DNA of 64,000 nucleotides from Candidatus Omnitrophota bacterium (GTDB lineage: Bacteria; Omnitrophota; Gorgyraeia; 2-01-FULL-45-10), in assembly GCA_041650935.1 (NCBI GenBank), contig JBAZKH010000006.1, positions 29,505 through 93,504 of the forward strand, written 5' to 3'. The position numbers were made by a program, and so were the translations under genes. Below are positions 8,624 through 64,000 of this stretch, in pieces. The notes beneath the pieces were generated by a model. That model searched no databases. It was not told the DNA's origin and was given only the letters and a program-made list of their open reading frames with translations. Position 1 is the stretch's first letter. Each line of letters opens with the position of its first letter.

Positions 8624-9916
8624 GTGGCTAAGGTTAAGATAAATCATGAAATCAGGGACATTTTACTTAAAGACTTGTCCCCGGCACCATATAATCCGCG
8701 CGATATCTCTAACGAGGCCTTGTCGGGCCTGCGGCACAGTCTCGAGAAGTTCGGTTACCTGGACCTTCTCGTAGTAAACAAGCGAACGATGCATATTGTC
8801 TCGGGCCACCAACGCTACAAGATTCTTAAAGACGAAGGCGTGGAGTCGGTGCCCGTGCTTCTTGTGGACGTTGATGAGCTCTTAGAGCAGGCGATGAACG
8901 TTACTCTGAACAATCAGGAGATATCGGGTATCTGGACGAGCATGCTCTTTCCGATACTGGAGCGCCTGAGGCGGGAAATGCCGGAGGACTACAGCAGTTT
9001 AAGGCTTAGGAACCTGCGGGACTCGGTATCCAAGCTCGAACCCGAGAACTTAGGCACAGGCAAGACGCTTCCCGATGATATCCCCGAACCGCCCGAACCT
9101 ATTACTAAGCTAGGCGACCTGTGGATACTCGGAGAACACCGCCTTTTGTGCGGGGATTCGACAAAAGAGGAAGATGTCGCTCGTCTTATGAACGGCGAGA
9201 AGGCGGCTTTGTTCGCTACCGACCCTCCATATTGCGTGGACTACACAGGCGACAACCGCCCCGGCGCCGGCAAGGATTGGTCAAGCGTATATCACGAGAT
9301 CGACATTCCCGATGCAAAGGTGTTTTTGAAGAGTTTTTTGCAGATAGGCCTGAAATTCATAAAAGAGCATACGGCTATCTACGTCTGGCATGCCTCTAAG
9401 CGAAAGAGCTTAATCGAGACTATCTGCGATGAGCTCGGCATCCTCATTCATCAGGAGATCATCTGGGTTAAGCCCTGCACGATCCTTACCTATTCGTTTT
9501 ATTCTTGGAGGCACGAGCCGTGTTTACTCATGTGGGTTCGGGGCTTCAAACCGCCTTATAAGCCCGAAGACAAATCAATCGGCACCGTTTGGAGGATCGA
9601 TCTTTTAAGAAGAGGCGATCCGACAACTCCCGACTACTACACCGATGTGTGGGAAGTCGACTGGGAAGGTAAGAAGCGCAACACCGGCCTTAAGCACCCC
9701 ACCGTAAAACCGACCGAGGTATTCGCGATCCCCATGCGAGTTCATACCTCGGTTGGTGATATCTGCTATGAGCCGTTCTCGGGCTCGGGCAGTCAGATTA
9801 TAGCGGGCGAGCGCGTTAACAGGCGCGTCTATGCAATGGAGATAGAGCCGGTGTTCTGCGACGTGGCGGTGAAACGTTGGGAAGACTTTACTGGAAGAAA
9901 GGCGGTCAAGACTTAG
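8624..9916 (+). CDS. ParB-like nuclease domain fused to beta-class DNA methyltransferase (N6-adenine or N4-cytosine)
   Basis: N-terminal ParB/Srx motif: PYNPRDIS...HIVSGHQRYKILKDEGVESVPVLLVD. DPPY motif in ALFATDPPYCVDY. Motif I FxGxG in EPFSGSGSQ at the C-terminus. The order IV then I marks a beta-class MTase. Confidence 0.8.
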   Translation: MAKVKINHEIRDILLKDLSPAPYNPRDISNEALSGLRHSLEKFGYLDLLVVNKRTMHIVSGHQRYKILKDEGVESVPVLLVDVDELLEQAMNVTLNNQEISGIWTSMLFPILERLRREMPEDYSSLRLRNLRDSVSKLEPENLGTGKTLPDDIPEPPEPITKLGDLWILGEHRLLCGDSTKEEDVARLMNGEKAALFATDPPYCVDYTGDNRPGAGKDWSSVYHEIDIPDAKVFLKSFLQIGLKFIKEHTAIYVWHASKRKSLIETICDELGILIHQEIIWVKPCTILTYSFYSWRHEPCLLMWVRGFKPPYKPEDKSIGTVWRIDLLRRGDPTTPDYYTDVWEVDWEGKKRNTGLKHPTVKPTEVFAIPMRVHTSVGDICYEPFSGSGSQIIAGERVNRRVYAMEIEPVFCDVAVKRWEDFTGRKAVKT

Positions 9917-16176: not shown

Positions 16177-17136
16177 ATGGGAGTTGATTATCAGGGTTCC
16201 AGAGCGGTACCGAGGTTAGAGCTCGGAGAAGCATCGCTGGAATACATCGAGCAACAGGACGAATTCATCGGGACGAGGGTTCTCCCGATATTCGAGACGA
16301 AGAAGAAGGCGAGTATATTCCCCGCCATCACTAGGGAAGTAATAACCCGGGAAGCTGACACGAGACGCGCCCCGCGCGGTAACTACAACCGTGACGGCAT
16401 CCAGGCCAAGGACAGGCAGTACGCCTGCGAAGAGTTCGGCCTTGAAGGGCCGCTCGACGACTCGGAGCGATCGCTCTATGCGACCGATTTCGATGCGGAG
16501 CTTACCACCGTGCAGATCGTGACCCGCAGGGTCCTGCAGGGTCAAGAGAGGAGGATCGCGGCCAAGATCTTCAACACGACCACCTTTACAGGAAGCGCCC
16601 TGTACACGGATTATTCGGCGGCTCCGTGGGATAACATATCCTCGAAGGTCATAGGCCAGGTGAGAGCGGCCAGGGAAAAGGTGAGGCAGAATACGGGTAT
16701 CGATCCGCAGGCCCTTATCTGCTCCAAGGCCAATATCGACAGGCTCCTAGACAATACGGACATCAAGGACGCGATTAAGTATGTAGCCCGGCTTACCGAA
16801 GCCGAGATACTTAACGCATTGGCCGATATCCTCGGGATAAAGCAGATACTGGTCGGTAAAGGTATCTATAACTCGGCCAAGGAAGGCAAGGTCTTCGCAT
16901 CGGCCGACATCTGGAACGACGATTACGCGATGCTCGCCGTGATCGACGCAAGCCAGAGACTGTCGAGCCCGTCCTTGGGAAGGACCTTCCTCTGGACGTT
17001 AGACTCGCCGGATAACGCGACCGTCGAGCAGTACCGGGACGACGCGGCAAGGAGCGATATATTCAGGGTTCGTCAGCACGTTGACGAGCACATAATCGAT
17101 CCTTATTTCGCGCATCTTCTGAAAGTAGACGCTTAA
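16177..17136 (+). CDS. Major capsid protein (lambda gpE-like)
   Basis: 319 aa, in the position of E. Followed by a stable hairpin. Confidence 0.55.
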   Translation: MGVDYQGSRAVPRLELGEASLEYIEQQDEFIGTRVLPIFETKKKASIFPAITREVITREADTRRAPRGNYNRDGIQAKDRQYACEEFGLEGPLDDSERSLYATDFDAELTTVQIVTRRVLQGQERRIAAKIFNTTTFTGSALYTDYSAAPWDNISSKVIGQVRAAREKVRQNTGIDPQALICSKANIDRLLDNTDIKDAIKYVARLTEAEILNALADILGIKQILVGKGIYNSAKEGKVFASADIWNDDYAMLAVIDASQRLSSPSLGRTFLWTLDSPDNATVEQYRDDAARSDIFRVRQHVDEHIIDPYFAHLLKVDA

Positions 17137-49245: not shown

Positions 49246-52200
49246 TTGACAATTGCTAAAAAAAGCGTATACTTTTTTACAATAAATATGACGCGTAATT
49301 CCCTGATCAAAAACTTCGCGCTTGCATTTTTATTTACCACCCTTATAATTTATGCCAATCCGGCATATGCCGCCAATCGTTCCCCCGCAGTAGGTGTAAT
49401 TACTCCCGATAATGGCACGTCGGCCCCGACACAGCGTGTAACATTTACGACCAGCTATTCCGATCCCGACGGCGCAAGCGATATAAGCCTTGCGCACCTT
49501 CTTATTAATACTACAGCAACCCCGCAAAATTGTTTCGCGGCCTACTACGACAATAAGCTCAATAAGCTTTATTTTGCAAACGATAAGGGTGTTATGGTAG
49601 GAGGGTATACTCCGGGTTCGTCCAGAACGATATCGAATTCGTATTGTAAACTCGAATGCTCTAAGACGGTGGTTGCCAAAACCGCCAATACCATTACCGT
49701 AACCTGGATGGTGGTCTTTAAACGGTCGTTCTCGGGGACGATCTATGACGCCTATCTGAAGGTAAACGATAAACAGAATGCTTCCACCGGCTGGGTCAAA
49801 AAGGGTGCATGGGCTGTAAATTTCCCGCCCAAGGTTGGCACGCTTAGTCCATCAAGGGGGACTTCCGTGCCGGGTCAAGAGATAATTATCTCTTCCAAGT
49901 ATCGGGATCGCGATAAAGGCGATAATATAAAACTTGCCTACCTGTTAATAAACACTTCGACCGAATGTCGGAATTGCCCGGCCGTATACTACGACAATAG
50001 CGCGAATAAGCTCTACATGTTGAATGATCAGGGAGACACAAGTGTCGGAGGCTTTGCCCCGGGATCTTCCAATATTATCGAAAATTCTTATTGCAAGCTT
50101 AATTGTTCCGCTACGCAAGTTACCAAGTTCAGCACCAATATGACCGTAAAATGGGACGTGACTTTTAAGCACCTTTTTGCCGGCAAGACTTACGACGTTT
50201 ATTTAAAGGCGGTCGATAAGACAGACTCTTCAACGGGCTGGGTTAAGAAGGGTGTGCGGATGGTGAAGGTTACGGATACAGTTGCGCCCGTTGGCAAGGT
50301 TGTGATAAATAGCGGAGCCGAATATACCAATACTGCAGCGACGAATCTGAAGCTATCGGCACAGGATAATTCCGGCGGGTCAGGGCTTTCTCAGATGCGG
50401 TTTTCGAACGATGACGTCAATTGGTCCTCTCCAGAAGCATATGCCACTACGAAGACGTGGATGTTGTCGTCCGGCGACGGGAATAAGACGGTCTATGTTA
50501 AGTTTTCTGACCTTGCAGGCAATTGGTCGAGTGCCTATTCCGATTCGATAAAACTCGATACCATACCGCCGCGTGTGATTATAACCAGCCCGCAGGATGG
50601 CGCTATTGTTACTGTCCCCGATCTTACCGTGAGTTATACATCCGACGGTGTTTCGAAGACAAAACAGCTTACGCTTCTGGAAGGCGATAATCTTATAACG
50701 ATAACAGAGACAGATCAGGCGGGGAATATCGGTACGGCATCGATGCATGTAAGGTTAAATACGGTCCCGCCGATACCTATAACCGACGTTAATGTTTCAC
50801 CAGGCATCATCTCGCCTAATGGAGACGGAAAAGCGGATACCGCCACTATCAACGCTACTGCCGGCATCCCTTGCGACTACACGATCACGATAAAAAACTC
50901 CTCTGGCACACCCGTAAAGACATTCCAAGGCCACAGTGCTACAGGAGCTATCTCCCGTGTCTGGGACGGTAAGAACGGATCGGGCGCCACTCAACCCGAA
51001 GGCACATATACCTACTATATAGACGTCACCGACGGGGTAAGCACAGCCCACACTGTTCCGCAAGCCATATATATCGATATTACTTCCCCTCAGGCAAGTG
51101 TCGTAGCTCCGTTAGCGGGCAATATCTCAGGAACTGTTCCTATAAAGGTCCTCGCAAATGACAGCCGGTGGAGGCAGGGTGATTGGAGCGCCGCCACATT
51201 ATACTACGGTCAGGGTTCAAGCCCTTCGCAGTGGATCATGCTAAATCGTTCTTATCTTCCGCTTGTTCTGGATAACGAAGGCCAGGCACCCGTGTTGTAC
51301 AGTTGGGATACCACAACTCTCGCAAACGGCGACTATGTTATAAAGTGGGTGGTTGTCGATGCTGCCGATAACGTTACGACTGTCAATGTGCCTGTAACAG
51401 TAACCAACGCCGGCCCTGACATAGCCAACCTCACCGTCGCCCCGAACCCGTTCTCGCCCGACGGAAGCGGGACGTGGATAGACCTTACGACCGGTGAGGT
51501 CTTCCAGGATCCAGGCCCGAACCGCGTCCTGGATGACATTGCGGCTATATCGTTCAATGTCTCAACCCACAGCTTCTTCAACATACGCGTGCTCGATTCT
51601 TCGGATAATCTAGTCAAACAACTTGTTTATAGCGCTCTCTATCCCGACTCCGCAACCCATAAGATCGAATTACAATGGGATGGCCGTAACGATAGCGGCG
51701 CATTAGTGCCTAATGGCCAGTACAAACTTGTTGTGAACGGGGGAAGTGTCCAGAAGGAAAAGTCTATCAACATAACTGTCGACAAAATGCCGTTTATCAC
51801 CGTTGCCAATATAGCCCCGAATCCTTTTTCACCAGATGGCGATGGTACCGACGAAGTTACCGCCATCTCTTACAATATTTCCGAAATATCGTATGTTACA
51901 GTCGAAATTTATAATCAGCAAAATTCTTTGGTTCGTACCCTGGTCAATCGTGAGCTGTTCCCGGCTGGAGATCATCTTCATATCTGGGATGGTAAAGACG
52001 CCCAGGGCGCAGCTATTCCAGAGGGTAGATATACAATAAAGATTAGCGCCCAGGCTCAAACCGGAAACGATGCTGAACCTGTCTATCTGAACGTAGGCGT
52101 CCTCTTCATTTCCAACATACATATCTCGACAGATAGTATAAATCCTTACGTGGGCGATACGGTCAGCATAATTTATCAGATGGCAAAGAGCAGTGTCCTC

Positions 52201-53034
52201 ACCATAAAGGTTTACGATCCGTCAAATTCCCCGGTGCGGACTCTTATATCGAACCAGAGCCGGCAGGCAGGGGCTCATTCCGAAGTTTGGAACGGCAGAG
52301 ATAACGCAAATCAGATCGTGAATGATGGACCGTACTACTTCGTGATTGAAGATAGCGCAAGCGGCCTGCCTCAGGTAATTTACGACCCGCGCGGGACAGG
52401 AGGAAAGGATATTTCGAAAAGCATAAATTTTGCTGCCTCTAATTTTAATCCGCTGCTCAACCAGTTTTGTATTATGAATTATAATCTGCCCCAGGCCGCC
52501 AGGATCAATATCAAAGTCCGCAGTGAGAGGTTCAGCGGCCCTGCCATCAAGGTGATAAGGTACGAGGAGCCGACCGCGCACGGTATCCATCAGGCTACCT
52601 GGGACGGCAGGGATGAATCCGGCAACTTTGTCGATATGAGATCATTCACATTCGGCCTTTGGGGGTATACACTCGATGAGAATTCTGTCATAGTCTGCGG
52701 CGGCAGGCCCGTCATAAGCGATCTAAACGTAAGCCCGGTACGGTTCAGCCCATATGTCAATCCTTATAGCACGAATGCTTCCCAGGCAACCGTATCGTTT
52801 AATCTCTCGAAGCTTGCGGACGTCACGATAAATATTTATAATTCCAAAGGTAATTTAGTGCGCGCGCTGGTGACTAATCAGGCAAGCGCTCAGGGCGCCA
52901 ATGCCTTTGTGTGGGACGGCAAAGATAACTCCGGGAACCTTGTCCCTAACGACTATTACAGGATAATGGTCCAGGCCGGTAAGAATGGTAACTATTCGGA
53001 AACGTGTACGGCGCATAGCGAAATATGTTATTAA
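49246..53034 (+). CDS. Giant secreted surface protein with duplicated N-terminal modules and multiple FlgD-Ig-like repeats
   Basis: Signal peptide present. Two homologous N-terminal modules, each ...SDPDGASDISLAHLLINT...YYDNKLNKLYF... Repeated NPFSPDGDG...(V/I)YN...LVRTL Ig-like units. Confidence 0.5.
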   Translation: MTIAKKSVYFFTINMTRNSLIKNFALAFLFTTLIIYANPAYAANRSPAVGVITPDNGTSAPTQRVTFTTSYSDPDGASDISLAHLLINTTATPQNCFAAYYDNKLNKLYFANDKGVMVGGYTPGSSRTISNSYCKLECSKTVVAKTANTITVTWMVVFKRSFSGTIYDAYLKVNDKQNASTGWVKKGAWAVNFPPKVGTLSPSRGTSVPGQEIIISSKYRDRDKGDNIKLAYLLINTSTECRNCPAVYYDNSANKLYMLNDQGDTSVGGFAPGSSNIIENSYCKLNCSATQVTKFSTNMTVKWDVTFKHLFAGKTYDVYLKAVDKTDSSTGWVKKGVRMVKVTDTVAPVGKVVINSGAEYTNTAATNLKLSAQDNSGGSGLSQMRFSNDDVNWSSPEAYATTKTWMLSSGDGNKTVYVKFSDLAGNWSSAYSDSIKLDTIPPRVIITSPQDGAIVTVPDLTVSYTSDGVSKTKQLTLLEGDNLITITETDQAGNIGTASMHVRLNTVPPIPITDVNVSPGIISPNGDGKADTATINATAGIPCDYTITIKNSSGTPVKTFQGHSATGAISRVWDGKNGSGATQPEGTYTYYIDVTDGVSTAHTVPQAIYIDITSPQASVVAPLAGNISGTVPIKVLANDSRWRQGDWSAATLYYGQGSSPSQWIMLNRSYLPLVLDNEGQAPVLYSWDTTTLANGDYVIKWVVVDAADNVTTVNVPVTVTNAGPDIANLTVAPNPFSPDGSGTWIDLTTGEVFQDPGPNRVLDDIAAISFNVSTHSFFNIRVLDSSDNLVKQLVYSALYPDSATHKIELQWDGRNDSGALVPNGQYKLVVNGGSVQKEKSINITVDKMPFITVANIAPNPFSPDGDGTDEVTAISYNISEISYVTVEIYNQQNSLVRTLVNRELFPAGDHLHIWDGKDAQGAAIPEGRYTIKISAQAQTGNDAEPVYLNVGVLFISNIHISTDSINPYVGDTVSIIYQMAKSSVLTIKVYDPSNSPVRTLISNQSRQAGAHSEVWNGRDNANQIVNDGPYYFVIEDSASGLPQVIYDPRGTGGKDISKSINFAASNFNPLLNQFCIMNYNLPQAARINIKVRSERFSGPAIKVIRYEEPTAHGIHQATWDGRDESGNFVDMRSFTFGLWGYTLDENSVIVCGGRPVISDLNVSPVRFSPYVNPYSTNASQATVSFNLSKLADVTINIYNSKGNLVRALVTNQASAQGANAFVWDGKDNSGNLVPNDYYRIMVQAGKNGNYSETCTAHSEICY

Positions 53035-53049
53035 GACAAGAGGACGAAG

Positions 53050-53466
53050 ATGATTAAAAGAATTGTTCTGACCCTGTTTCTCGTAAGCGCGTTTACCGTT
53101 TTCGCCTCGGCGGCGGAAAAATTGCCTAAGAATGCGGTAAACGTAAAATTGGTATTTCCCGCCGCCGCTAATACCGCAATGAGGGCGCCGGCGCCCATAG
53201 CGGAACCGCAGGAGATAGCCGGGCAGGTCTTCGTCGATTTTGTGCCGCACCCGGAGGGCGTTGAGAAGGACAGATACCTTGTGGAATATTTTTTAGACGA
53301 CCAGCTTATTTATAAAACTACGGCAAGCGGAACGTTTAAATATACGCTGGATACCGCGAAATACGAAAACGGCCGGCATAAACTCATAGTAAACTTCTGG
53401 GATGATTCAGGCCCGTCGGCTATCGGTGTACGGGAAGTAGTGATAAATAATAAGTCGGGGGCGTAG
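53050..53466 (+). CDS. Small secreted protein
   Basis: Signal peptide (MIKRIVLTLFLVSAFTVFASA). Sits immediately upstream of the Rhs gene. Confidence 0.3.
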   Translation: MIKRIVLTLFLVSAFTVFASAAEKLPKNAVNVKLVFPAAANTAMRAPAPIAEPQEIAGQVFVDFVPHPEGVEKDRYLVEYFLDDQLIYKTTASGTFKYTLDTAKYENGRHKLIVNFWDDSGPSAIGVREVVINNKSGA

Positions 53467-53467
53467 A

Positions 53468-56400
53468 ATGAAAAGAGCGCGTTCAAAAATATCGGCCGGC
53501 ATTGCGCTAGTATTCTTCGCGGCCAATCTGTTTTTACCCTCCAACTCATTCGCAGAACTACCATGCTGGAACGATAGCTGGCTCGCCTCTGCTACAGGCG
53601 GGGTTGCCGGCGCTACCGGGGCTCAAAAAGGCGATTTCAACAAGAAGGGCTGCACGAAGGCCGGCGATCCGGTCGACGTCGCTAACGGCTGTTACTCCTA
53701 CCGGATCCAGGACGCTATTATCCCGTCACGCGGCCTAAATCTCGAGATAACGCGTTACTACAACTCTCTCGATATATACGAAGGCCCGTTCGGCATCGGC
53801 TGGAGCCATAACTACAACATATTCCTGCTGCCGACTTCAGACGGAAACGAGGTGTATGTCATAAGACGTAACGCCGACGGCTCCAAAGATAAATTCCTTC
53901 GAAATCCCGACGGGTCATACGCCGCGCCTGCCGGCTGTTACGACACTCTTACAAAGGACATGTCGGGCTACACCATCCGTGATAAGCATGGTTCAAGGCA
54001 GGCCTTTAGCCTGGACGGAAAACTTATGTATGTTTCCGATAGAAATTCGAACAGGATTTATTTTGAGTACGATCCGGCGACCGGAGTCTTAAAGAAAGCC
54101 GCCGATTCTCTCGGCAGGTGCTTCGAATTCACTTACAATTCGAGCCACAAAGTAACTTCGATAAAAGATCATACCGGCCGCGTAAATAGCTACGGCTATG
54201 ACGGCGCCGGCAATATGACCACACACACCGGACCTGGGACCGATGGCTATCCTGCCGGCCTTACGACGGGCTATTCCTACGATAGCCAGCACAGGATAGA
54301 ATCGATCACCGATCCTAAGGGGCAGACATATCTATCGATAGTCTACAATGACGACGGCCGGGTATGGCGTCTCACCTACGGCGCGGGCGTATATGTCTTC
54401 GCCTATCAGGCCAACCTAACCATATTAACCGACCCAAGGGGCAATGTCGTAGAATATGTGCTGAACCCCGATGGCACGGTCAAGGCTAAGAAACAGAACG
54501 GCCGCCAGACAAGGTACGAATACAATGCGGCCAGGGAACGTGTGAAAGTCTTCCATCCGAGGGGTAACTGGGTCAAATATGCCTATGACGATAAGGGCAA
54601 TATCCTTGAGGTCAGGGAGAAGATGATAAACGCTCCTGACGTCGAAGACGCGGCAAACGATATTTTGACAAGATTCGCTTATGAACCGGACTTTAATTTT
54701 ATAAAGACCGTTACCGACCCGATGGGCAATGTGACATCTTATACTTATGATGGGGCAGGTAACTTAAAAAAGATCACTTACCCGCAGGTGAACGGCGCGG
54801 TGCCGATAGTCGAATTAAGTTACAATACCTACGGCCAGCTCGAAACCGTTACCGACCCTAACAGTATAGTGGCCAAATACACCTATTATCCCGACTCGTG
54901 GTATTTAAATAAGATAATATGCGATTACGGCACGGGAAGGTTTAATTACACGACCGAGTACGCATATGACCAGGCCGGCAACGTCGCTTCGATTAAAGAC
55001 CCGCAAGGTTACACGACTACCTTCCAGCATAACGCGCTTAACCAGGTTACGAGATCGATCGCGCCTGCGCCCTTTAGCTATGTTACAAAATATTTCTACG
55101 ACAAGACCGGTAACGTCGCAAGGGCGGAGCGGCAGACAAACGATAACGGAACGGCATGGCAGATCACAGTCTACAGATACAATATCGCGGACAAGCTCGA
55201 GACGGTCACCGATAACCTCGGCAACGTCACTACCTTCGGCTACGACGAAAATTATAACCGCACTTCCGCGCGTGACGCGGAATTGAAGATCACAACCTAT
55301 TTTTACGAGGAGAGAGACCTTCTCTGGAAGGTGATAGACGCCGAAGGCAATACTACAGAGTACGCATATGATGAGAACGGCAACTTAAAAGAAGTTAAAG
55401 ACCCATCAGGCAACCTTACCGTATATACCTACGACGACTTCGACCGGCTGACGAAAACCACGTATGCCGATAGTTCAGCAGAAGAGTATATTTATGATAC
55501 TAACTCGAACATTACTTATAAGACGTTGCCCGATGCAAAGATCGTCTATTATGAATACGATGCCCTCAACAGGCTTATCGGGAAAGGGTTTTCCCCGAAG
55601 TGGGTACTTCCTTCGAGTATAGTTACATACGGCTACGATACCGCTTCGCGATTAACCGATGTCGTGGCTTCGGCCGGTACGACCCATTACGGTTACGACA
55701 ACCTCAATCGCGTTACCAATATAACGTACCCGGATACAAAGCAAGTCTCCTATGAATACGACGCCAATTCTAATCGTACGAAGTTTGTCTACCCTGACGC
55801 AAGTTTTATAACGTACGAATACGACCACCTAAACAGGTTGAGCGCGATAAAAGACGCCTCATCCCAGCCGGTAGTCAGATACTCTTACGACGCCTTATCG
55901 AGACGCGCGAAGACGACCTACGCTAACAGCACCGAGATCGCTTACTCCTATGACGGCCTGAATCGTCTCGAAGAGATCGCCAGCCATAAGACCGGTGAAC
56001 CGGCCAATATTTCGCAGTATTCCTACACATACGATAAGGCAGGCAACCGTAAAACGATGACGGCTTCGGAAGGCGTCCACAGTTACACCTACGACGATAT
56101 CTACCAGTTAAAGACAGCGAGCTATCCCGGCGGATACTTTTTGCCAAGCGTGGCTTTTGACTATGACGCGGCAGGTAATCGTACTTCAAGTACTGGAGAC
56201 GCAGTAATAAGCTATGTCCCGAATAGCCTCAACCAGTACGCCTCGGTTGGCGGTGTAAACTATTCCTACGATCCTAATGGTAATCTTACAAATTCTGCCA
56301 CGAATACATACAGTTACGACTATGAGAATAGACTTACCTCAGCTACCACGCCCAGCCATACAGCAAGCTATGGTTACGATGCGTTCGGCAGGCGTATCTC

Positions 56401-57244
56401 TAAGACGGTGGATGGGGTTACCACCACTTATCTTTACGACGGTGATGACATAATTGCTGAATATGATAGTTCAGGTAACCTTGTAACTAAATACGTCTAT
56501 GGAGATAGCATAGACGAGCCAGTCTGTATGATGACCGCTGGTAGCGGAGGTTTCAACCTCCGCTACTATCACTACGACGGTCTTGGTTCAGTAACAAATC
56601 TTACAGACTCAACTGGGGCGACAGTTGAGAGTTACTCCTACGATGTCTTTGGTAAGCCCAGTACAGTTTCAGCCGTGGGTAACAGGTATATGTTTACGGG
56701 GAGAGAATATGATGCGGAGACGGGATTATATCACTATCGGGCAAGAGCTTACTCGCCAGAGCTTGGGAGGTTTTTACAAACTGACCCGATTGGATATTGG
56801 GGCGGTATAAATCTTTATACTTACTGTGATAATAATCCTGTAAGTTATATTGACCCATTGGGGTTATTCGTTTTTGGAAAGCGTCCTTTGGAAGGGAAGC
56901 CTTGGTTTGATAATGCTTCTGATAATAGAGCAGATGATTACTTGAATACGGAACTCTCTCACGAGCACGGATTCTTTGAAGATGGCTCTGGGGAAAATGT
57001 TGGATTCGGCCCAAAAGGACGTTTCTCAGAAGACCCGATGGGTAAAGGATATAGATATGGCACCGAGCATTATGATGACGAACTTATGCGGGAAGCTTTG
57101 AAAAATGTAAAAGACGGCAAGTATTCTAATTGGCCTTGGAGTAAGAACAACTGTCAAGACTGGGCAGAACGGTTGCGTAGAGAATATGAAAGACTGAAGA
57201 AAGAAAAAGAGAGAAACCAAACCAAGTGCAAAGGTAAAAAATAA
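53468..57244 (+). CDS. Rhs/YD-repeat polymorphic toxin with C-terminal variable toxin domain
   Basis: Signal peptide, many YD repeats (YEYDANSNRT, YSYDALSRR, ...). The RHS core ends YRARAYSPELGRFLQTDPIGYWGGINLYTYCDNNPVSYIDPLGL, followed by a roughly 125-aa unique C-terminal domain. Confidence 0.85.
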   Translation: MKRARSKISAGIALVFFAANLFLPSNSFAELPCWNDSWLASATGGVAGATGAQKGDFNKKGCTKAGDPVDVANGCYSYRIQDAIIPSRGLNLEITRYYNSLDIYEGPFGIGWSHNYNIFLLPTSDGNEVYVIRRNADGSKDKFLRNPDGSYAAPAGCYDTLTKDMSGYTIRDKHGSRQAFSLDGKLMYVSDRNSNRIYFEYDPATGVLKKAADSLGRCFEFTYNSSHKVTSIKDHTGRVNSYGYDGAGNMTTHTGPGTDGYPAGLTTGYSYDSQHRIESITDPKGQTYLSIVYNDDGRVWRLTYGAGVYVFAYQANLTILTDPRGNVVEYVLNPDGTVKAKKQNGRQTRYEYNAARERVKVFHPRGNWVKYAYDDKGNILEVREKMINAPDVEDAANDILTRFAYEPDFNFIKTVTDPMGNVTSYTYDGAGNLKKITYPQVNGAVPIVELSYNTYGQLETVTDPNSIVAKYTYYPDSWYLNKIICDYGTGRFNYTTEYAYDQAGNVASIKDPQGYTTTFQHNALNQVTRSIAPAPFSYVTKYFYDKTGNVARAERQTNDNGTAWQITVYRYNIADKLETVTDNLGNVTTFGYDENYNRTSARDAELKITTYFYEERDLLWKVIDAEGNTTEYAYDENGNLKEVKDPSGNLTVYTYDDFDRLTKTTYADSSAEEYIYDTNSNITYKTLPDAKIVYYEYDALNRLIGKGFSPKWVLPSSIVTYGYDTASRLTDVVASAGTTHYGYDNLNRVTNITYPDTKQVSYEYDANSNRTKFVYPDASFITYEYDHLNRLSAIKDASSQPVVRYSYDALSRRAKTTYANSTEIAYSYDGLNRLEEIASHKTGEPANISQYSYTYDKAGNRKTMTASEGVHSYTYDDIYQLKTASYPGGYFLPSVAFDYDAAGNRTSSTGDAVISYVPNSLNQYASVGGVNYSYDPNGNLTNSATNTYSYDYENRLTSATTPSHTASYGYDAFGRRISKTVDGVTTTYLYDGDDIIAEYDSSGNLVTKYVYGDSIDEPVCMMTAGSGGFNLRYYHYDGLGSVTNLTDSTGATVESYSYDVFGKPSTVSAVGNRYMFTGREYDAETGLYHYRARAYSPELGRFLQTDPIGYWGGINLYTYCDNNPVSYIDPLGLFVFGKRPLEGKPWFDNASDNRADDYLNTELSHEHGFFEDGSGENVGFGPKGRFSEDPMGKGYRYGTEHYDDELMREALKNVKDGKYSNWPWSKNNCQDWAERLRREYERLKKEKERNQTKCKGKK

Positions 57245-57323
57245 GCGGAAGAAGTAATATAGTTTACAACTTATTCTTTAAGAGATGCGGACGGGTGCGT
57301 GATAAAAAAGAGAGGATGGGAAT

Positions 57324-57932
57324 ATGGTGGTGATGGGTATCGTATTATTACTTATTTTGGTTATATTAGTCGTGATAGTTGTAAAGGCTCCATTACCTTT
57401 GTGGGGGAAAATAGGTTTTTTATTAGTTCTTGTTGTTAGTATTTTCCTTGTAAAGGCCATAAGGGGATTTTTACCTTTACCAATAGGTATACGGCACCTT
57501 GTCAACTTAACGATACAACCAAAGGATTTATATACACCCATAATAACGGACGAGTTTCTGTTTTACGAAAAAGGTTATACTAAAACATACCCTTTAATAG
57601 CCAGGCATCTTGATATTTATGAGTTAGGATTTTTAAGTTGGGAAAATATCATCCCATCAAAGTATAGATTTGATGGAAAGCTACAGGCAGATTTTTTCTG
57701 GAAAGACCAGTTGTTATTCTCCAAGGTAATAACTTCAATCAATAGTGGTGTATATGCTGAAAAAGATATGGCACACTATAAGGAGGTTTCCCTGCTAAAG
57801 TTTGACATACCATTAGAGGGGAAATATGCGAAGAACATTAGCGTTAGAATAACTGTTTTAGAGCCAGCATTAGAATTAAAAGCATACAAAGATTCTGTTA
57901 AGTTTTATGTAGCTGTGAGTTCAACTCCCTAA
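57324..57932 (+). CDS. Putative Rhs immunity protein (membrane-anchored)
   Basis: Immediately downstream of the toxin CT. N-terminal TM helix. Confidence 0.4.
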   Translation: MVVMGIVLLLILVILVVIVVKAPLPLWGKIGFLLVLVVSIFLVKAIRGFLPLPIGIRHLVNLTIQPKDLYTPIITDEFLFYEKGYTKTYPLIARHLDIYELGFLSWENIIPSKYRFDGKLQADFFWKDQLLFSKVITSINSGVYAEKDMAHYKEVSLLKFDIPLEGKYAKNISVRITVLEPALELKAYKDSVKFYVAVSSTP

Positions 57933-57948
57933 ATATAGAGGAAATAGG

Positions 57949-57973
57949 TGCCATCCCAGAAGGTGCCACCCTT
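57949..57973 (+). repeat. REP-like element copy 1 (GGTGCCATCCCAGAAGGTGCCACCC)
   Basis: Identical 25-mer at 59287-59311 and as reverse complement at 60019-60043. All three are preceded by GAAATA. Confidence 0.7.
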
Positions 57974-58095
57974 GTAGCACAGTTCTTTGACAGCCTCCTT
58001 CCTATGACGGCGATGACATAATCGCTGAATATGATGCGTCAGGTAACCTCGTAACTAAATACGTCTATGGTGATAGTATAGACGAGCCAATAAGG

Positions 58096-58923
58096 ATGGA
58101 GAAAGGAGGGCAGAGTTACTATTATCATTCGGATGGGTTGGGGTCGGTAACTAACCTTACTGACTCAACTGGAGCAACTGCTGAAAGCTATTCCTATGAT
58201 GTCTTTGGCAAACCTAGCACTACCTCTGCTATCGGTAATCGCTATATGTTTACAGGCAGGGAATACGATGCTGAGACGGGGTTATACCATTACAGAGAAC
58301 GTAGTTACTCACCACAGATAGGACGCTTCCTCCAGAGAGATCCGCTACAGATAGACGATGAGAATACATACAGCTATTGCAGTAATGACCCCATCAACTA
58401 TATAGACCCGCATGGACTTCAAATGGTTTCCATAGGCACTTCTGAAGGACCAGTCTGGACACCGCCTCCAGGGCTTGGACCAACCTGGGCACCTCCTCCA
58501 GGCATAACAATACCTCCTGGGGGCTTGCCTGGAAGCGGGATATTGTATAACACGGCGGGTGGTGCATTAGGTGCAGGTGCTTTAACAGGCGCAGCTACAG
58601 TAGGCGGTTTTGCCGTGAGCAATCCGAAAATTACTCTTCATGGAAGTCAAGATTCAGATAGCGGTGTTTCAAAGATGGGAATAGTGCAGAGGGTTAGAGA
58701 CTGGTGGAACAATTTATGGAACAAGAATAATCAGAAGAAACCACCTGGTAAAAATGTGTGGTGGGATGAAAAACGAAAAAGATGGGTAGATGACGAGTAT
58801 GTGTATACATGGGATAAAAAACCTCATAAAAAAAGAGGTGGAGGGTCGCATTGGGACAGAGGACCTTTAAAAGGCGGAAAGGGAGAATGGTCTCCAGACG
58901 GCGCAAGCTGGTATCCAAAATAG
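58096..58923 (+). CDS. Orphan rhs C-terminal cassette (RHS core fragment + alternative toxin domain)
   Basis: Nucleotide and protein homology to the 3' core of the main rhs gene begins at about 57997 (YDGDDIIAEYD...), with no start codon there. Contains DPINYIDPHGL followed by a distinct Pro/Gly-rich CT. Confidence 0.6.
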   Translation: MEKGGQSYYYHSDGLGSVTNLTDSTGATAESYSYDVFGKPSTTSAIGNRYMFTGREYDAETGLYHYRERSYSPQIGRFLQRDPLQIDDENTYSYCSNDPINYIDPHGLQMVSIGTSEGPVWTPPPGLGPTWAPPPGITIPPGGLPGSGILYNTAGGALGAGALTGAATVGGFAVSNPKITLHGSQDSDSGVSKMGIVQRVRDWWNNLWNKNNQKKPPGKNVWWDEKRKRWVDDEYVYTWDKKPHKKRGGGSHWDRGPLKGGKGEWSPDGASWYPK

Positions 58924-58935
58924 GGGTGAAGTGTT

Positions 58936-59274
58936 ATGTCTGATATTAAATGTTCCTGTGGAAGCAAAGATGTCTTTGCTTATGAATTGGTTAAATGTAA
59001 AAAATGCGGCAAAGTCATAAAAGATTTTTCAGAAGGACTGAAAAAGGGGTGGAAACTAAAAATAACTTATAATGAAGATAAATCTGGCGAAATATGGATA
59101 CGAGGCAACAAAAGCGGCTTGGAATTCTTGGCAAGCTGTTGCCTTGCCATAATAGGAAAAAATGACCCATCCGGACATATTCATCTTCAATGGCAAATGA
59201 ATAATTTGTTGCCAGGTTCAACAGAAACGCTTTTAGAATATTCTGATTACGCAGAGAATTATCAAGAGAAATAG
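58936..59274 (+). CDS. Putative immunity protein for the orphan toxin (zinc-ribbon)
   Basis: CSCGS...CKKCGK motif. Immediately downstream of the orphan CT. Confidence 0.4.
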   Translation: MSDIKCSCGSKDVFAYELVKCKKCGKVIKDFSEGLKKGWKLKITYNEDKSGEIWIRGNKSGLEFLASCCLAIIGKNDPSGHIHLQWQMNNLLPGSTETLLEYSDYAENYQEK

Positions 59275-59286
59275 GTAGTGGAAATA

Positions 59287-59311
59287 GGTGCCATCCCAGA
59301 AGGTGCCACCC
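59287..59311 (+). repeat. REP-like element copy 2
   Basis: Identical to copy 1. Located 120 nt upstream of the RAYT gene. Confidence 0.7.
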
Positions 59312-59431
59312 ATAGCATCATTCTGCTTAGCTAAAGTATTTTAAAATAATTTGCAACAAAATAGCCTCATTTTGCGTCTTTATATATGAGGGGATACGTT
59401 ATCCCCACTAGACGAAAAAGGAGGTATTTTT

Positions 59432-60019
59432 ATGGGTAGACCTAATAGGATCCTGGTAGATGGTGGAGTGTATCATATAATAAATCGGGGGCATAATAGA
59501 TATAAAGTTTTCAATTCGTTGGATGATTATAAGGCATATAAAGACATAATACGAAGATATAAGGAGGATTTTAAGTTCGATCTTTTTCATTATTGTCTCA
59601 TGCCCAACCACATACACCTGCTACTGAGAATATCTAGAGGTATTGAGCTTCCGCGTCTTATGCAAGCTATGACACAGGCATATGCAAAGCATTATAAGAA
59701 GCAATATAAGTTTATCGGTAACCTCTTCCAGGGCAGGTATAAGAGCCCATACATAGATAAAGACGAGTATCTATTAGAATGCGGCAGATATATTGAAAGA
59801 AATCCGCTGAGGGCTCATATGGTTAGCGACCTTTCGCAGTATAATTTTTCAAGTTATAATTTCTACGCTGGAGGCAAAAAAGATGATATAATTACTGAAA
59901 ATCCACTTTATAAAGCACTATCATCCGATCCTTCAATGCAGAAGCGACTATACAGAGAGTACCTATTGCAAGAAAGGCCATACGAAAATATTATAGATAA
60001 AGAATTCAAGATATCCTAG
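59432..60019 (+). CDS. REP-associated tyrosine transposase (RAYT, IS200/Y1 HUH family)
   Basis: HUH motif in YCLMPNHIHLLL. Catalytic Tyr context GNLFQGRYKSPYIDKD. About 195 aa. Flanked by inverted REP copies. Confidence 0.75.
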   Translation: MGRPNRILVDGGVYHIINRGHNRYKVFNSLDDYKAYKDIIRRYKEDFKFDLFHYCLMPNHIHLLLRISRGIELPRLMQAMTQAYAKHYKKQYKFIGNLFQGRYKSPYIDKDEYLLECGRYIERNPLRAHMVSDLSQYNFSSYNFYAGGKKDDIITENPLYKALSSDPSMQKRLYREYLLQERPYENIIDKEFKIS

Positions 60020-60043
60020 GGTGGCACCTTCTGGGATGGCACC
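60019..60043 (-). repeat. REP-like element copy 3 (inverted), overlapping the RAYT stop codon
   Basis: GGGTGGCACCTTCTGGGATGGCACC is the reverse complement of copies 1 and 2. Confidence 0.7.
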
Positions 60044-60428
60044 GTTTTTTTGGGGTGGAAATTTATAGAGACGCTTCCCGGTAACATCCGGAAAGCGCCT
60101 CTATTTTTTTATCTAACGGTTGCCGGTAATAGAGGCAGTTTATCCCTCACCTATAAAGACGCAAAAACCGGTCAATTTGTTGCAGTTATTTTGCGAAAAT
60201 TGACTATATGCCGGCCATGTGATATATTTTAGTCAGTTCTTTTCATAAGATACAAGCAGTACATTACCATAAAGCAGGGTTCGGCCTTGCTAACCGTTAA
60301 GTATGGTAGGGTGTAATGCTTTGCCCGAAAGGGTAAAGGGAGAATTGCAGCCTTATCGGATTTACTTAACGGTTGCCGGTAATGGATGTGCGCTCCCTTT
60401 TTTGTTTTTAACAAAGGTAAAATTTATG

Positions 60429-60457
60429 TTGACAAAAAATCAAATATATAATATACT
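60429..60457 (+). promoter_or_regulatory. Sigma-70-type promoter TTGACA-N17-TATACT
   Basis: TTGACA at 60429-60434 and TATACT at 60452-60457, upstream of the receiver gene. Confidence 0.55.
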
Positions 60458-60498
60458 CAGGTACCTTAACCCAAGTGCGAAGAAAGGGGCTATTCATA

Positions 60499-60882
60499 AT
60501 GCGCGAGAATAAGAGGAATGCTGTAATCCTGGTAGTCGATGACGAGAGGGAGGCGACGATGAGCTTAAGGGGTTTCTTTGCGGCCCTGGGCTATGATATG
60601 CTTACGGCCTTTGACGGCAAGGAGGCCCTGGAGATCATAGACTCGGGCAGGAGGATCGATCTTATCCTCCTCGATATCAGGATGCCCGGTATCGACGGTA
60701 TCCAGATATTAGAACACCTCCGGCAGACCGATTCCGGGACAAAGGTTATAGTGATCACCGCATATGATAAAGATGTGAAGGACGAGGTCGAGGGGCTCGG
60801 CGTAGACGGTTTCTTAACCAAGCCGATAGACTTGTCCAAACTGATCGACAATGTCCGCCGCGTGATCGATAGAAAGGAATAA
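60499..60882 (+). CDS. Response regulator, receiver domain only
   Basis: AVILVVDDERE...LILLDIRMPGIDG...KVIVITAYD. Probable ATG at 60499 with an AAAGGGG RBS. The listed ORF starts at 60475. Confidence 0.7.
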   Translation: MRENKRNAVILVVDDEREATMSLRGFFAALGYDMLTAFDGKEALEIIDSGRRIDLILLDIRMPGIDGIQILEHLRQTDSGTKVIVITAYDKDVKDEVEGLGVDGFLTKPIDLSKLIDNVRRVIDRKE

Positions 60883-60967
60883 AAAAATCTCGTTTATGGG
60901 AAAAAATAACCTCGATATAGGATTAATCGAAATAAAAACATCGCTACGCGAACGGATAAAGATTTAA

Positions 60968-61189
60968 TGGATAAACAATACGATTTCATTCGCTAGAGAT
61001 AAATACAGTAATCCGTCTATTTACTACATGGAATGGGCAGGTGATTGGAACTTGGTCTATCGAGATGAGGAAGAATTTAAATGTATTTTTAAAGAAGCCG
61101 GGTTTACTGATGATCAATTAAAGATTCAGTATGAACAGCAGGGGATAATGCAGTATATGATCGCCAGCGCGAAACCTGAAGAGATCTAA
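60968..61189 (+). pseudogene. Remnant 3' fragment of a class I SAM-methyltransferase-like gene
   Basis: Open frame without a plausible full-length start. Encodes ...EWAGDWNLVYRDEEEFKCIFKEAGFTDDQL..., typical of an MTase C-terminus. Confidence 0.25.
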
Positions 61190-61293
61190 TTCATAAAAAG
61201 CCAAAAGAAGTTCTCCGTCGCAGCCGACATTTAAATGTCGGCTACAATATCGTCGGGCAACTTCTCTATGCTAATCTATTACCGCAAGCTTCG

Positions 61294-61322
61294 TTGACAA
61301 AGTATACATTTTAGTGTATACT
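61294..61322 (+). promoter_or_regulatory. Promoter TTGACA-N17-TATACT with embedded GTATAC operator palindromes for the TA operon
   Basis: TTGACA at 61294-61299 and TATACT at 61317-61322. GTATAC at 61302-61307 and 61316-61321. Confidence 0.55.
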
Positions 61323-61942: not shown

Positions 61943-64000
61943 ATGCGAAAGCTATTAACCTTTCTGAATATTTGGCCTGTCCTTATCATTCTCTCTATAG
62001 TTCCATTCCTGTTTCCCGCGTCAGCCCAGGCAGACGAAGCGTCTTATATAATCGTTCACGTCCATAATCCCGAAGGTATTGAGATAGCGAGCATCCCTAA
62101 CGGGGTGGACACGGTAAGTTCCGACGGTTCTCAAGGCGCGGAAATTTACGACGGCGATAATTTTATCGCAGGCGGCGCTTACAATACCGGGACTCATTGT
62201 AAGCCTATCGAGATCTCATCCGGTTCCCATACCATAAAAGCCAAATTTAACGGTATGACTAAAGAAGAGGATGTCACCCTCGATCCGGGCCAGACAAAGA
62301 TAGTGGTATTTACCTTCCAGAGAACAAACCGCATAGATGATGTGGCGGGCTCTTTTCCTATGAATTACAACGATACCGTCTCCGCATCCGGATGGACCGA
62401 TGTTCACGCCGCGATCTGGGAAAATACCGATCTATATTCGATGGGCGGTGATTTTGACGTGATGTATTGCACTGCCAATATTTCGTTAACAGTTGCCGGT
62501 TCCGTTACTTCTTTAGGGGATAACCGGTTCCGGATGGAGCATCACATAGCGGCCGCGTCATCCTCTTTCGGCGACTCCCATCCGCCCGCACCAAATGTAG
62601 GATGGGGCTTTGTCGCGACCGGATTTTCGTTAATAAATAAAGTAAATTATCATATCGATCTTCCGCATACGTGCGATCGCTGGTTTATCCAGGGATGGGG
62701 GCTTATTTCGAAAACCGGATGCGCGAGCCTTGAGGACAGCGACGGCAACCAGACGGGGATAAGCAGTTTTCTCGAAGACGTGCCGGGGCATTATTATACG
62801 ATCTCCGTGCCTTACGGTATTTACCATATCCGGGCAGGTTTTAAGTTGAATGCCGGCCAGTATTGGAGGATGGGTTCGGTTATGGGCAATCCCGAACAGG
62901 AATACGTAACCCCCGGCTGCAGCCAGGACGTGGAGTTCCCGCGGTATGTAACGGACGTTCCTTACAACCTCTCCGGCGCAGGCCTTGGGAATCAGCTCAT
63001 CGTCGAAGGCGGGACAGATAAGGAATCCTACGGGATAAATGACGAGGTTAAAATTTCCTGCGTGGTTAAAGACGGGACCAGCGGCGAGATCTTATCCGCC
63101 GATACTATTATCGCGGAAATAACCCTGCCGGACGGTTCGAAAGAAGAAGTCTCGTTATCGGAAGTAGAGACCGGGAAGTATGAGGGCGCTTTTACCGGCA
63201 CATCCCAGGTAGGAAGTTATTCTATCGGCGTGGACGCAAAGAAAGCCGATTATGCCGATGGTACGAAAGAGATAGATTTCCCGGCTACTATGCTGGAAAT
63301 ATTGGACGGTTCCAGTTTTTCTTCCGGAGCTGAAATCTCCGATTCACCCGAAAAGCTCGTCTCTATTGACGGCATAAAGATGAAAGGCGTTGCGGCAGAC
63401 GGGGCGGCCAGGCTTCTTTTACGGATAAAGACGGGCGTTTCCGCGCAGGTGTCGCTTTCTCTGGAAGGCGGTACGGGTGACAAGTCGGAGGACGGTGTTC
63501 TTCGTTCCATAGACAGGAAAGAGAAGCAGGAGGGAAACTCCATCGAGGCGCATACCGTAAGCACAAGTAAAGGAGACATCGCATTTGCCATTTATCAGGC
63601 GCCGGTTAATTTTGTGCGCGGTCCTGACGATACGACGGCTCCTTTAAGATCGATGATGTTAAGGGTAGTGGTAAATAGTGACGACGCCTTGGCGCATTAT
63701 AACTTCCTGGAAGATATCAGGATCGCCAGGCCGCCCGTTGTTTTTATACATGGGATATGGTCGAGCCAGCTCTGCTGGCTTAATTTCGAGAACAAAGTCT
63801 ATGACGCTATCCCGGGTATCTACACTGTCATAGCCGATTATGAAGCCACGAATGCGGACTATTTTACCATCAACATGTGGGTCGTGCGCCAGTACCTTAA
63901 TAAAGCCAGGGCTGTGATGCGCGAGAGCGGTATCGCCATGGTTCGCGCCGATATAGTCGCTCATAGTATGGGCGGCATATTGTCGCGGCTATGGTCATGT
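61943..64000 (+). CDS. Secreted protein with C-terminal alpha/beta-hydrolase (lipase-like, GxSxG) domain, 3' partial (runs off the window)
   Basis: Signal peptide (MRKLLTFLNIWPVLIILSIVPFLFPASAQA). Hand translation shows no stops through 64000. VVFIHGIWSS...IVAHSMGGILSRL lipase signature near the end. Confidence 0.5.
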   Translation, partial: MRKLLTFLNIWPVLIILSIVPFLFPASAQADEASYIIVHVHNPEGIEIASIPNGVDTVSSDGSQGAEIYDGDNFIAGGAYNTGTHCKPIEISSGSHTIKAKFNGMTKEEDVTLDPGQTKIVVFTFQRTNRIDDVAGSFPMNYNDTVSASGWTDVHAAIWENTDLYSMGGDFDVMYCTANISLTVAGSVTSLGDNRFRMEHHIAAASSSFGDSHPPAPNVGWGFVATGFSLINKVNYHIDLPHTCDRWFIQGWGLISKTGCASLEDSDGNQTGISSFLEDVPGHYYTISVPYGIYHIRAGFKLNAGQYWRMGSVMGNPEQEYVTPGCSQDVEFPRYVTDVPYNLSGAGLGNQLIVEGGTDKESYGINDEVKISCVVKDGTSGEILSADTIIAEITLPDGSKEEVSLSEVETGKYEGAFTGTSQVGSYSIGVDAKKADYADGTKEIDFPATMLEILDGSSFSSGAEISDSPEKLVSIDGIKMKGVAADGAARLLLRIKTGVSAQVSLSLEGGTGDKSEDGVLRSIDRKEKQEGNSIEAHTVSTSKGDIAFAIYQAPVNFVRGPDDTTAPLRSMMLRVVVNSDDALAHYNFLEDIRIARPPVVFIHGIWSSQLCWLNFENKVYDAIPGIYTVIADYEATNADYFTINMWVVRQYLNKARAVMRESGIAMVRADIVAHSMGGILSRLWSC

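Follow-up and report, generated by a model that had tools for sequence, protein, structure and literature searches.

A RAYT-type transposase unit and copies of its end repeat recur at toxin–immunity cassette borders in Omnitrophota

Introduction

Two questions meet at one locus of a metagenome-assembled Candidatus Omnitrophota genome: what RAYT-type transposases (tyrosine transposases associated with REPs, repetitive extragenic palindromic sequences) are for, and how orphan toxin–immunity arrays are assembled behind Rhs and other polymorphic-toxin genes. The locus lies in a 64-kb stretch of contig JBAZKH010000006.1 (assembly GCA_041650935.1), hereafter called the window, whose own numbering we use. 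There, a 25-mer, GGTGCCATCCCAGAAGGTGCCACCC, borders an orphan toxin–immunity module on both sides and occurs a third time, inverted, at the end of a gene for a RAYT-type transposase. Units homologous to this transposase gene and its repeats, or stumps of their left ends, recur at toxin–immunity cassette borders in other Omnitrophota loci.

Results

An orphan toxin–immunity module lies between two direct copies of a 25-mer

The locus has the following features, in which REP1 to REP3 denote the three copies of the 25-mer.

53468–57244, plus strand: primary Rhs toxin gene, 1258 aa (DUF6531, E 2.1e-15; RHS_repeat, E 1.7e-81)
57324–57932, plus strand: putative immunity gene 1, 202 aa with a hydrophobic N-terminus, assigned by position alone
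57936–57971 (25-mer 57947–57971), plus strand: REP1, solo left-end copy; exact match plus 11 nt of flank in common with REP2
58003–58923, plus strand: orphan rhs fragment with toxin domain CT2; core homology to 56435–56788 (TIGR03696 Rhs_assc_core, E 3.6e-25)
58936–59274, plus strand: immunity gene 2, 112 aa, Imm32 family (PF15566, 28.6 bits; cut-off 27)
59276–59311 (25-mer 59287–59311), plus strand: REP2, the left end of the RAYT unit; exact match, with a left-end REP in every homologous unit
59312–59431, plus strand: RAYT leader, ...TATTTTAAAATAATTTGCAACAAAATAGCCTC.TTTTGCGTCTTTATATAT, a hairpin and AAAGGAGG-N7-ATG; kept across RAYT lineages with different REPs
59432–60019, plus strand: RAYT-type HUH/Y1 transposase gene, 195 aa (PF01797, E 3e-18)
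60019–60043, minus strand: REP3, the right end of the RAYT unit; inverted exact copy with a 1-nt overlap with the stop codon, in the same place relative to the stop in homologous units
60066–60115, plus strand: strong hairpin followed by a T-run, likely the RAYT terminator, outside the unit; a 109-nt segment folds at −41 kcal/mol (z −4.3)
60144–60192, minus strand: inverted partial leader copy (80% over 50 nt), probably a stump of another unit

The primary Rhs protein consists of a DUF6531 domain, 13 RHS repeats and a core ending in ...DPIGYWGGINLYTYCDNNPVSYIDPLGL, followed by a C-terminal toxin domain, CT1; the core motif ...DPIGY...IDPLGL can be read in its translation. With the Rhs protein of a second Omnitrophota locus, L024, it shares 55% identity. 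The 202-aa protein encoded next to it matched no Pfam or NCBIfam family. Further downstream, the orphan fragment joins the 3' part of an rhs core to a different toxin domain, CT2. Its core-like stretch (58003–58344) is 74% identical to the primary core over 302 nt, and its protein shares 70.7% amino acid identity with Rhs residues 990–1146. Since this alignment stops at residue 1146, CT2 is unrelated to CT1. Core homology begins at 58003, past an in-frame stop codon at 57988–57990, and the first ATG is at 58096. As an Rhs locus, the window thus has a full Rhs protein with a variable C-terminus and a small gene next to it, as well as a downstream core fragment with a new C-terminus and an immunity gene of its own.

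An exact search of the window placed the 25-mer at 57947–57971 (plus strand), 59287–59311 (plus strand) and 60019–60043 (minus strand), all within 2.1 kb of the RAYT gene, and no further copies were found in the window even with up to three mismatches. A chance repeat is ruled out, since 100 dinucleotide-preserving shuffles yielded no match to the 25-mer, a chance expectation of 0. The initial annotation, made from the sequence alone, had reported these three copies with the third inverted; it gave the positions of the second and third exactly and misplaced the start of the first by 2 nt (57949 for 57947). It was also right that GAAATA precedes both plus-strand copies. This hexamer belongs to a longer identity, TAGnGGAAATA plus the 25-mer, so that the 25-mer and 11 nt of outer flank make up a 36-nt direct repeat with one mismatch (97% identical). 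Allowing for further divergence, 57931–57971 aligns with 59269–59311 at 93%, with a BLAST match that ends at the end of the REP. REP1 and REP2 have 11–16 nt of outer flank in common, and similarity on the inner side is weak. The third copy overlaps the RAYT stop codon, as had been noticed, by one base of the TAG at 60017–60019.

The claim that the first two copies tightly delimit the orphan module holds. REP1 begins 14 nt after the stop codon of immunity gene 1 (57930–57932) and is followed by the orphan core homology after 31 nt, and REP2 begins 12 nt after the end of the Imm32 gene at 59274. In the Logan contigs of SRR8542065, three contigs (L016, L014 and L006) correspond to window positions 51367–57969, 57942–59309 and 59284–61251, their ends falling inside REP1 and REP2. 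Such breaks are to be expected of a repeat longer than k = 31; they show that the REP is repeated and do not imply repetition of the whole unit. When the exact RAYT, immunity-1 and Imm32 proteins were looked up, all that came back was this arrangement or short de Bruijn contigs broken in REP1 or REP2, with no alternative arrangement such as an empty site, a deletion or a circle.

The transposase gene and its inverted repeats form a conserved unit

The 195-aa protein is a RAYT-type Y1 transposase. Its H60-x-H62 and Y120 (in an RYIERNP motif) are invariant across 25 homologs. A family profile searched against the Protein Data Bank (PDB) gave E. coli TnpA-REP (4ER8, E 1.3e-5) as top match, and so did a fold search with an AlphaFold model (mean predicted local distance difference test score, pLDDT, 89.8), with E 5e-9 and a target template-modelling (TM) score of 0.77 compared to 0.57–0.70 for IS608 and ISDra2. 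Against the NCBI RAYT equivalog model NF047646 it scored 71.1 bits, under the cut-off of 80, and against the IS200 model only 27.6 bits.

We compared the window with the surroundings of ten homologous proteins (52–85% identical) and with one locus from a DNA search, which together gave 13 units in 11 independent loci. In all 13 units, the start codon has a plus-strand REP about 100–150 nt before it, and an inverted REP sits at the stop codon or just past it, while the sequence beyond the two REPs is unrelated between loci. Since every homologous unit has this REP pair and the outside sequence differs, the borders of the unit in the window can be set at 59287–60043, with the REPs as its ends: a 757-nt element made of REP(+), a conserved leader, the transposase gene and REP(−). 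The inverted pair around the RAYT gene that had been pointed out in the initial annotation is thus a general layout. Its label as classic REP or REPIN-like does not fit, since the pair encloses a whole gene and there is no short doublet.

The REP sequence varies with the RAYT lineage, and four types were seen: GGTGCCATCC-N5-GGTGCCACCC (in short, GGTGCC...GGTGCCACCC), GGGGCCATCC-N5-GGGGACACCC (GGGGCC...GGGGACACCC), GGGGACGGTCC-N4-GGTACCACCCC (GGGGACGGTCC...CCACCCC) and AGACGTCC-N6-GGGGCACCC (AGACGTCC...GGGGCACCC). Within a type the end is strikingly constant, the identical 25-mer flanking RAYTs with only 64–85% protein identity in differing genomic contexts. An end that changes with the enzyme lineage and stays constant beside diverged enzymes points to a recognition site under selection. 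REP2 and REP3 are thus the two ends of the unit and, most likely, the recognition sites of its enzyme.

The distribution of the units differs from single-copy vertical inheritance. Two divergent RAYT units (49% and 58% identical) occur in one array at both L017 and L019, assembly GCA_041643015.1 carries two RAYT paralogs, and RAYTs that are 85% identical were found in three unrelated contexts. Viral contigs yielded only two distant RAYT relatives, 33–34% identical and uninformative.

The repeat appears to be low-copy, is not a terminator and is not a convincing palindrome

That all plus-strand copies of the 25-mer lie just past stop codons could suggest a role in regulation or structure, for example as a terminator or an mRNA-stabilising hairpin, unrelated to the transposase. 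In the same vein, the bottom strand of the third copy folds modestly as DNA (−7 kcal/mol, z −2.6) and has a T-run after it. The other folds give a different picture: the top strand reaches −3 kcal/mol (z ~0), RNA folds of the 25-mer have z ~0, and copies 1 and 2 fold no better than shuffled sequence. Across 20 REP variants, RNAalifold found no consensus structure, and for a named hairpin 78% of cells pair with covariation not above that of shuffles. A terminator scan found nothing at REP1 or REP3 and one weak match at 59302–59319, made of the last 10 nt of REP2 and the next 8 nt, in a scan with 4 matches found and 2.6 expected. The window has no match to an Rfam RNA family, and the terminator-like hairpin at 60066–60115 sits apart from the repeats. 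Moreover, RAYT genes are always flanked by the repeat, and its sequence changes in step with their lineage. The terminator or mRNA-hairpin reading is ruled out by the folds, the absent covariation and the terminator scan, and we regard a regulatory, structural or chance origin as a whole as very improbable. Nor is the palindromic nature implied by the name REP convincingly borne out: the hairpin is marginal, covariation is absent, and the 25-mer reads better as two direct 10-nt half-sites, GGTGCCATCC and GGTGCCACCC, than as a palindrome.

The copy number of the 25-mer looks low. Among 185,579 GTDB representative genomes there is a single exact occurrence (L001), where the copy stands alone, flanked by a flavodoxin gene and dinB. 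For the 21-mer core, the metagenome collection gave three matches; one of these matches (L004, 978–998) is a coding coincidence, lying on the reverse strand of an unrelated coding sequence where it encodes GTFWDGT, on a higher-GC metagenome contig, and is a chance match. In about 239 kb of non-redundant sequence comprising the window and related loci, essentially every copy is within 6 kb of a RAYT. A high-copy generic REP is ruled out as far as these data reach, and the random scattering that the initial annotation had named as grounds for doubt is not what we found: the copies are few and near RAYTs.

Units recur next to polymorphic-toxin genes

The initial annotation had proposed checking whether other copies flank toxin–immunity cassettes. 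They do so in 7 of the 11 loci (9 of the 13 units), in which the RAYT gene comes immediately after a polymorphic-toxin gene with its small partner gene or genes: the window, L010, L017 (two units), L019 (two units), L020, L024 and L025. True Rhs proteins are encoded in the window and at L024, whose Rhs protein has the core motif. The other five loci encode members of one homologous family of giant proteins (2,100 to more than 4,400 aa), in which RHS and C39 peptidase signals are faint. Placement of units or stumps at cassette borders is therefore seen in two unrelated toxin families, Rhs and the giant YD/C39 proteins. As a pattern, this recurrence of units or left-end stumps at toxin–immunity cassette borders in Omnitrophota is real.

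L017 offers the most elaborate array, which reads: a giant gene with C-terminus CT_A, TPR311, the RAYTa unit, an orphan of 555 aa, HEAT213, the RAYTb unit, a 93-aa fragment, TPR204 and two REPa stumps. The first 34 residues of the 555-aa orphan are 59% identical to the upstream giant protein, and its C-terminal domain matches the C-terminus of the L020 giant; HEAT213 is 37% identical to HEAT208 of L020. Likewise, the 93-aa fragment matches the C-terminus of the L019 giant, and TPR204 matches TPR201 of L019. Orphan 5' ends start at a similar distance past the REP in the two arrays, 31 nt in the window and about 35–40 nt at L017. The giant family behaves as a polymorphic-toxin system, with variable C-termini, cognate TPR or HEAT partners and orphan C-terminal modules shuffled between genomes; preprints on Omnitrophota giant genes contain no description of the giants as such a system.

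Could the association simply reflect the places where insertions are tolerated? The orphan array would then stem from ordinary Rhs displacement, the unit and the solo REP having landed later in permissive gaps, and adjacency to toxins would mirror the permissiveness of weakly selected, variable islands rather than a mechanism. Several observations speak for this. Units also edge accessory islands free of toxins: at L007 the unit lies between YjbQ and the edge of a small RDD/holin-like accessory islet inside a nucleotide-biosynthesis cluster, and at L011 it is beside an IS66/primase island. The solo copy of L001, between the flavodoxin gene and dinB, is far from toxins. Tight packing of cassettes, besides, puts any intergenic insertion within tens of nucleotides of a cassette end. 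On the other side, 7 of 11 loci beside toxins is far above chance given one or a few such loci per genome, which we infer rather than derive from a genome-wide computation, and adjacency to toxins is kept while all other neighbours differ. REP1 also carries the 11-nt outer flank of REP2 and so looks like a unit-border copy, unlike the bare 25-mer of L001. We consider such a late, incidental insertion unlikely.

Two simpler explanations fall away. Only the window and L017 have a downstream neighbour in common, a Phd/ParE pair that is alike in antitoxin (67% identical) and toxin (66%). Neighbours otherwise differ between loci, so that simple conserved synteny cannot be the reason why RAYT and toxin genes are adjacent. 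L010 is ruled out as an ancestral state of the window, since neither CT2 nor Imm32 is related to the giant protein or the 90-aa gene found there.

The literature that we searched contains no described link of RAYTs with Rhs or polymorphic-toxin cassettes. Two preprints on Omnitrophota giant genes mention other transposase families near the giants, but not IS200/RAYT-type units or cassette arrays. The link thus appears to be undescribed.

Solo copies of the left end lie on one strand, and duplications abut REP edges

Extra REPs near RAYTs are all on the strand of the left-end REP, usually with part of the leader. These same-strand solo copies are REP1 in the window, one copy at L007 (11199), two at L017 (11705 and 11754), two at L024 (2328 and 4239) and one at L022 (3767). 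The L007 copy consists of the REP plus about 40 nt and brackets the RAYT and an RDD gene; the L017 copies comprise 67 nt identical to the left end of RAYTa, 5,010 nt downstream; at L024, the copy at 2328 is a tandem 118-nt duplication and that at 4239 follows a 270-aa gene. At L022, a REP-like 25-mer (3767–3791; 87% over 31 nt to the L022 REP) is 6 kb upstream of the RAYT unit and falls in the called open reading frame (ORF) of a glutaminyl-tRNA synthetase-like gene, where it may be a coding coincidence, a gene-call artefact or an insertion. Bracketing is not exclusive to toxins, as the initial annotation would have it, since same-strand copies also enclose the RDD gene of L007 and the 270-aa gene of L024.

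Left-end stumps without a RAYT ORF are found at cassette borders in L007, L017, L024 and L025. Leader copies of about 100 nt without a RAYT ORF occur in the window (60144–60192, minus strand), at L017 (11879–11962) and at L025 (12257–12357, 12927–12999 and 16546–16680). One of the L025 copies keeps 19 RAYT codons (MPRSKRIIYNGAIYHIVQR) before a toxin–antitoxin promoter, and the ATG of one opens a 96-aa gene upstream of ParE; the L017 leader leads straight into a Phd/ParE promoter. Judging from these remnants, RAYT ORFs apparently gave way to toxin–antitoxin modules on at least two occasions (L017 and L025), a churn typical of variable regions that again fits a late insertion into permissive gaps. 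We dropped the idea of the leader as a generic promoter, since its extra copies are RAYT-unit stumps, one of them with 19 RAYT codons. The Phd/ParE modules themselves (window 61293–61322; L017 11968–11998; L025 ~16697–16725) have in common a promoter-like sequence with a palindrome, TTGACAAAGTATACATT(T/A)TAGTGTATACT, which is probably their autoregulatory operator.

Micro-duplications occur at the outer edges of REPs. In the window, GAAATAGGT is present twice (59267–59289), abutting the outer edge of REP2 and containing the Imm32 stop codon. Others are GAAATAGG and AAAATAGG, each twice, and GGTAAATC, three times, and the sites are at L019 (~3850–3870), L025 (~9850–9866 and 10612–10640), L022 (9852–9899 and 10593–10652), L017 (11705–11776) and L024 (2318–2545). 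Doublets of whole REPs have periods of 35, 49 and 118 nt. Such duplications suggest repeated breakage and rejoining, or slippage, at REP edges.

A second short repeat in the window, TAACGGTTGCCGGTAAT, occurs exactly at 60114–60130 and 60367–60383 (0 expected by chance), 3' of the RAYT unit and 5' of a response-regulator gene. A third, diverged copy (~86%) is at 62480–62500, about 2.1 kb further downstream.

A rival reading is active capture, in which a cassette lying between two REPs of one strand would be excised and integrated by the RAYT enzyme. With the REPs exposed as single-stranded DNA on the template of the lagging strand, the enzyme would cleave there, close the released segment into a circle and insert it beside another REP, in the manner of IS608 ends or integron attC sites, and REP1–orphan–REP2 in the window would be a mobilisable cassette. 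Y1 enzymes act on ends lying on one strand, as established for IS608 and ISDra2, and every solo copy near a RAYT shares the strand of the left-end REP. In all 11 loci the sense strand of the RAYT gene is the one rich in G, in keeping with single-strand biology, though gene-strand bias is a confounder here. REP1 and REP2 are alike in the REP and the outer flank and differ in the inner flank, as a site-specific join predicts; the tandem micro-duplications at REP outer edges in several loci suggest repeated processing; direct REP pairs enclose discrete gene sets in four loci; and the catalytic residues of the enzyme are intact. Against this, our look-ups yielded neither a circle junction nor an empty site nor any other arrangement, and the strand and orientation biases are confounded by gene direction, which is nearly uniform within these loci. 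Active capture leaves the universal inverted right-end REP unexplained, and arrays like that of L017 have two RAYT/REP types instead of one integrase-like enzyme serving many cassettes. We therefore regard active capture as doubtful.

Discussion

The account that we prefer, and hold with moderate confidence, is that REP2 and REP3 are the ends of a RAYT unit, that REP1 is a left-end copy at a seam, that cassettes are regularly bordered by such units and that the 36-nt direct repeat is a scar at which recombination might take place. It builds on the anatomy and conservation of the unit, the co-variation of end and enzyme and the association with toxin arrays, all of which are directly observed. 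REP1 would mark the point where the resident rhs CT1/immunity-1 cassette meets a displaced orphan CT2/Imm32 cassette. The ancestral locus may have read rhs-CT2-Imm32-REP-RAYT-REP. A new segment, core-CT1-imm1-REP..., would then have arrived via recombination in the conserved rhs core and ended just past its own REP, displacing CT2 downstream as an orphan with two identical same-strand REPs around it. The 36-nt direct repeat left as a scar could serve to delete or re-insert the 1,340-nt orphan module. The order of these events, the travel of cassettes with the unit and recombination at the REPs are what we infer from the arrangement.

Several points weigh against this account. No donor or empty site was found in our look-ups to support the order of events. 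The 31 nt after REP1 are only weakly like the leader after REP2; a truncated unit, if that is what REP1 is, would have come from a lineage whose spacer was different. Across genomes, one cassette type can have different REP types behind it (L017 compared with L019 and L020), which leaves long-term co-inheritance of cassette and unit a conjecture. Three of the 11 loci have no recognisable toxin beside the unit: L007, L011 and L003, where the neighbours are a gene of no known function and a tRNA. A fourth, L022, is an uncertain case: its 1,387-aa protein matched no family. Finally, the loci were chosen by similarity to one RAYT and are not fully independent. As for the link between REP/RAYT and toxins proposed in the initial annotation, recurrent placement at cassette borders stands, whereas mobilisation of the cassettes by the transposase does not gain support, no alternative arrangement having been found.

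How does the unit compare with known systems? REP/RAYT systems of Proteobacteria have reportedly been described by Nunvar et al. 2010, Bertels & Rainey 2011 and Messing et al. 2012, the last for the E. coli TnpA-REP structure. As in those systems, the enzyme is a small HUH/Y1 transposase whose best profile and fold match is TnpA-REP (4ER8), and its gene lies between two inverted copies of about 25 nt specific to the enzyme lineage. Unlike them, the repeat in the window is not convincingly palindromic and is low-copy as far as seen (three in 64 kb), there are several divergent paralogs per locus or genome in Omnitrophota instead of one vertically inherited copy, the window protein scores under the NCBI RAYT cut-off, and Omnitrophota units are systematically at toxin-cassette borders. 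With the IS200/IS605 group (IS200, IS608 and ISDra2), the unit has in common the Y1 HUH fold and motifs, a size of about 0.7 kb and strand-biased extra copies of an end. Its own ends are inverted copies of one 25-mer, whereas those of IS200/IS605 elements are different subterminal hairpins on the same strand, and in the one contig of the genome at hand there is no sign of multiple identical copies or of a defined target sequence.

Orphan toxin–immunity arrays of Rhs and contact-dependent inhibition (CDI) systems, and the H-rpt element (ISAs1-type) at the 3' end of E. coli Rhs elements, are said to have been reported by Jackson 2009, Poole 2011 and Koskiniemi 2014. The window resembles these arrays in having a full rhs gene followed by a core-fragment orphan with its own immunity gene, and a transposase-type gene at the distal end. 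In contrast to E. coli Rhs with H-rpt, the element is a Y1/RAYT-type unit with conserved end repeats and not a DDE insertion sequence, and it also punctuates arrays of an unrelated giant toxin family. There is, by analogy only, a resemblance to integron cassettes, in that short one-strand sites at cassette borders lie next to a gene for a tyrosine enzyme acting on single-stranded DNA. Unlike the attC/IntI pair of integrons, the RAYT belongs to a different enzyme superfamily, there is no folded attC-like site, an array has several enzyme genes, and site-specific cassette exchange is not seen at RAYT loci.

The element is a divergent, low-copy RAYT-type unit, and its placement at cassette borders is a new and testable pattern on which we base the hypothesis that cassettes may be mobilised. 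A recurrent and tightly placed association in a phylum known for giant surface and toxin-like proteins is a lead that can be tested, with a short, defined end and a small enzyme with intact catalytic residues as handles. Active capture, if true, predicts REP-to-REP deletions, circles and cleavage of top-strand oligonucleotides. Were the direct repeat to recombine, a 1,340-nt circle would join the Imm32 end, the REP and TTGTAGCAC... Short-read assemblies will fragment such arrays, separating orphan modules from their loci, and many RAYT homologs sit on contigs of about 1 kb.

At its boldest, the pattern might mean that RAYT-type Y1 transposases of Omnitrophota are cassette-handling enzymes, which capture, excise or shuffle toxin–immunity and toxin–antitoxin cassettes behind polymorphic-toxin genes by cutting single-stranded DNA at same-strand REPs; this is a speculative proposal that we think improbable. 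If true, HUH chemistry would here underlie a cassette system like that of integrons, and this would provide both a function for a RAYT family and a mechanism for orphan arrays. Even if the enzyme is a passenger, its units mark cassette borders in these bacteria and explain why assemblies break there.

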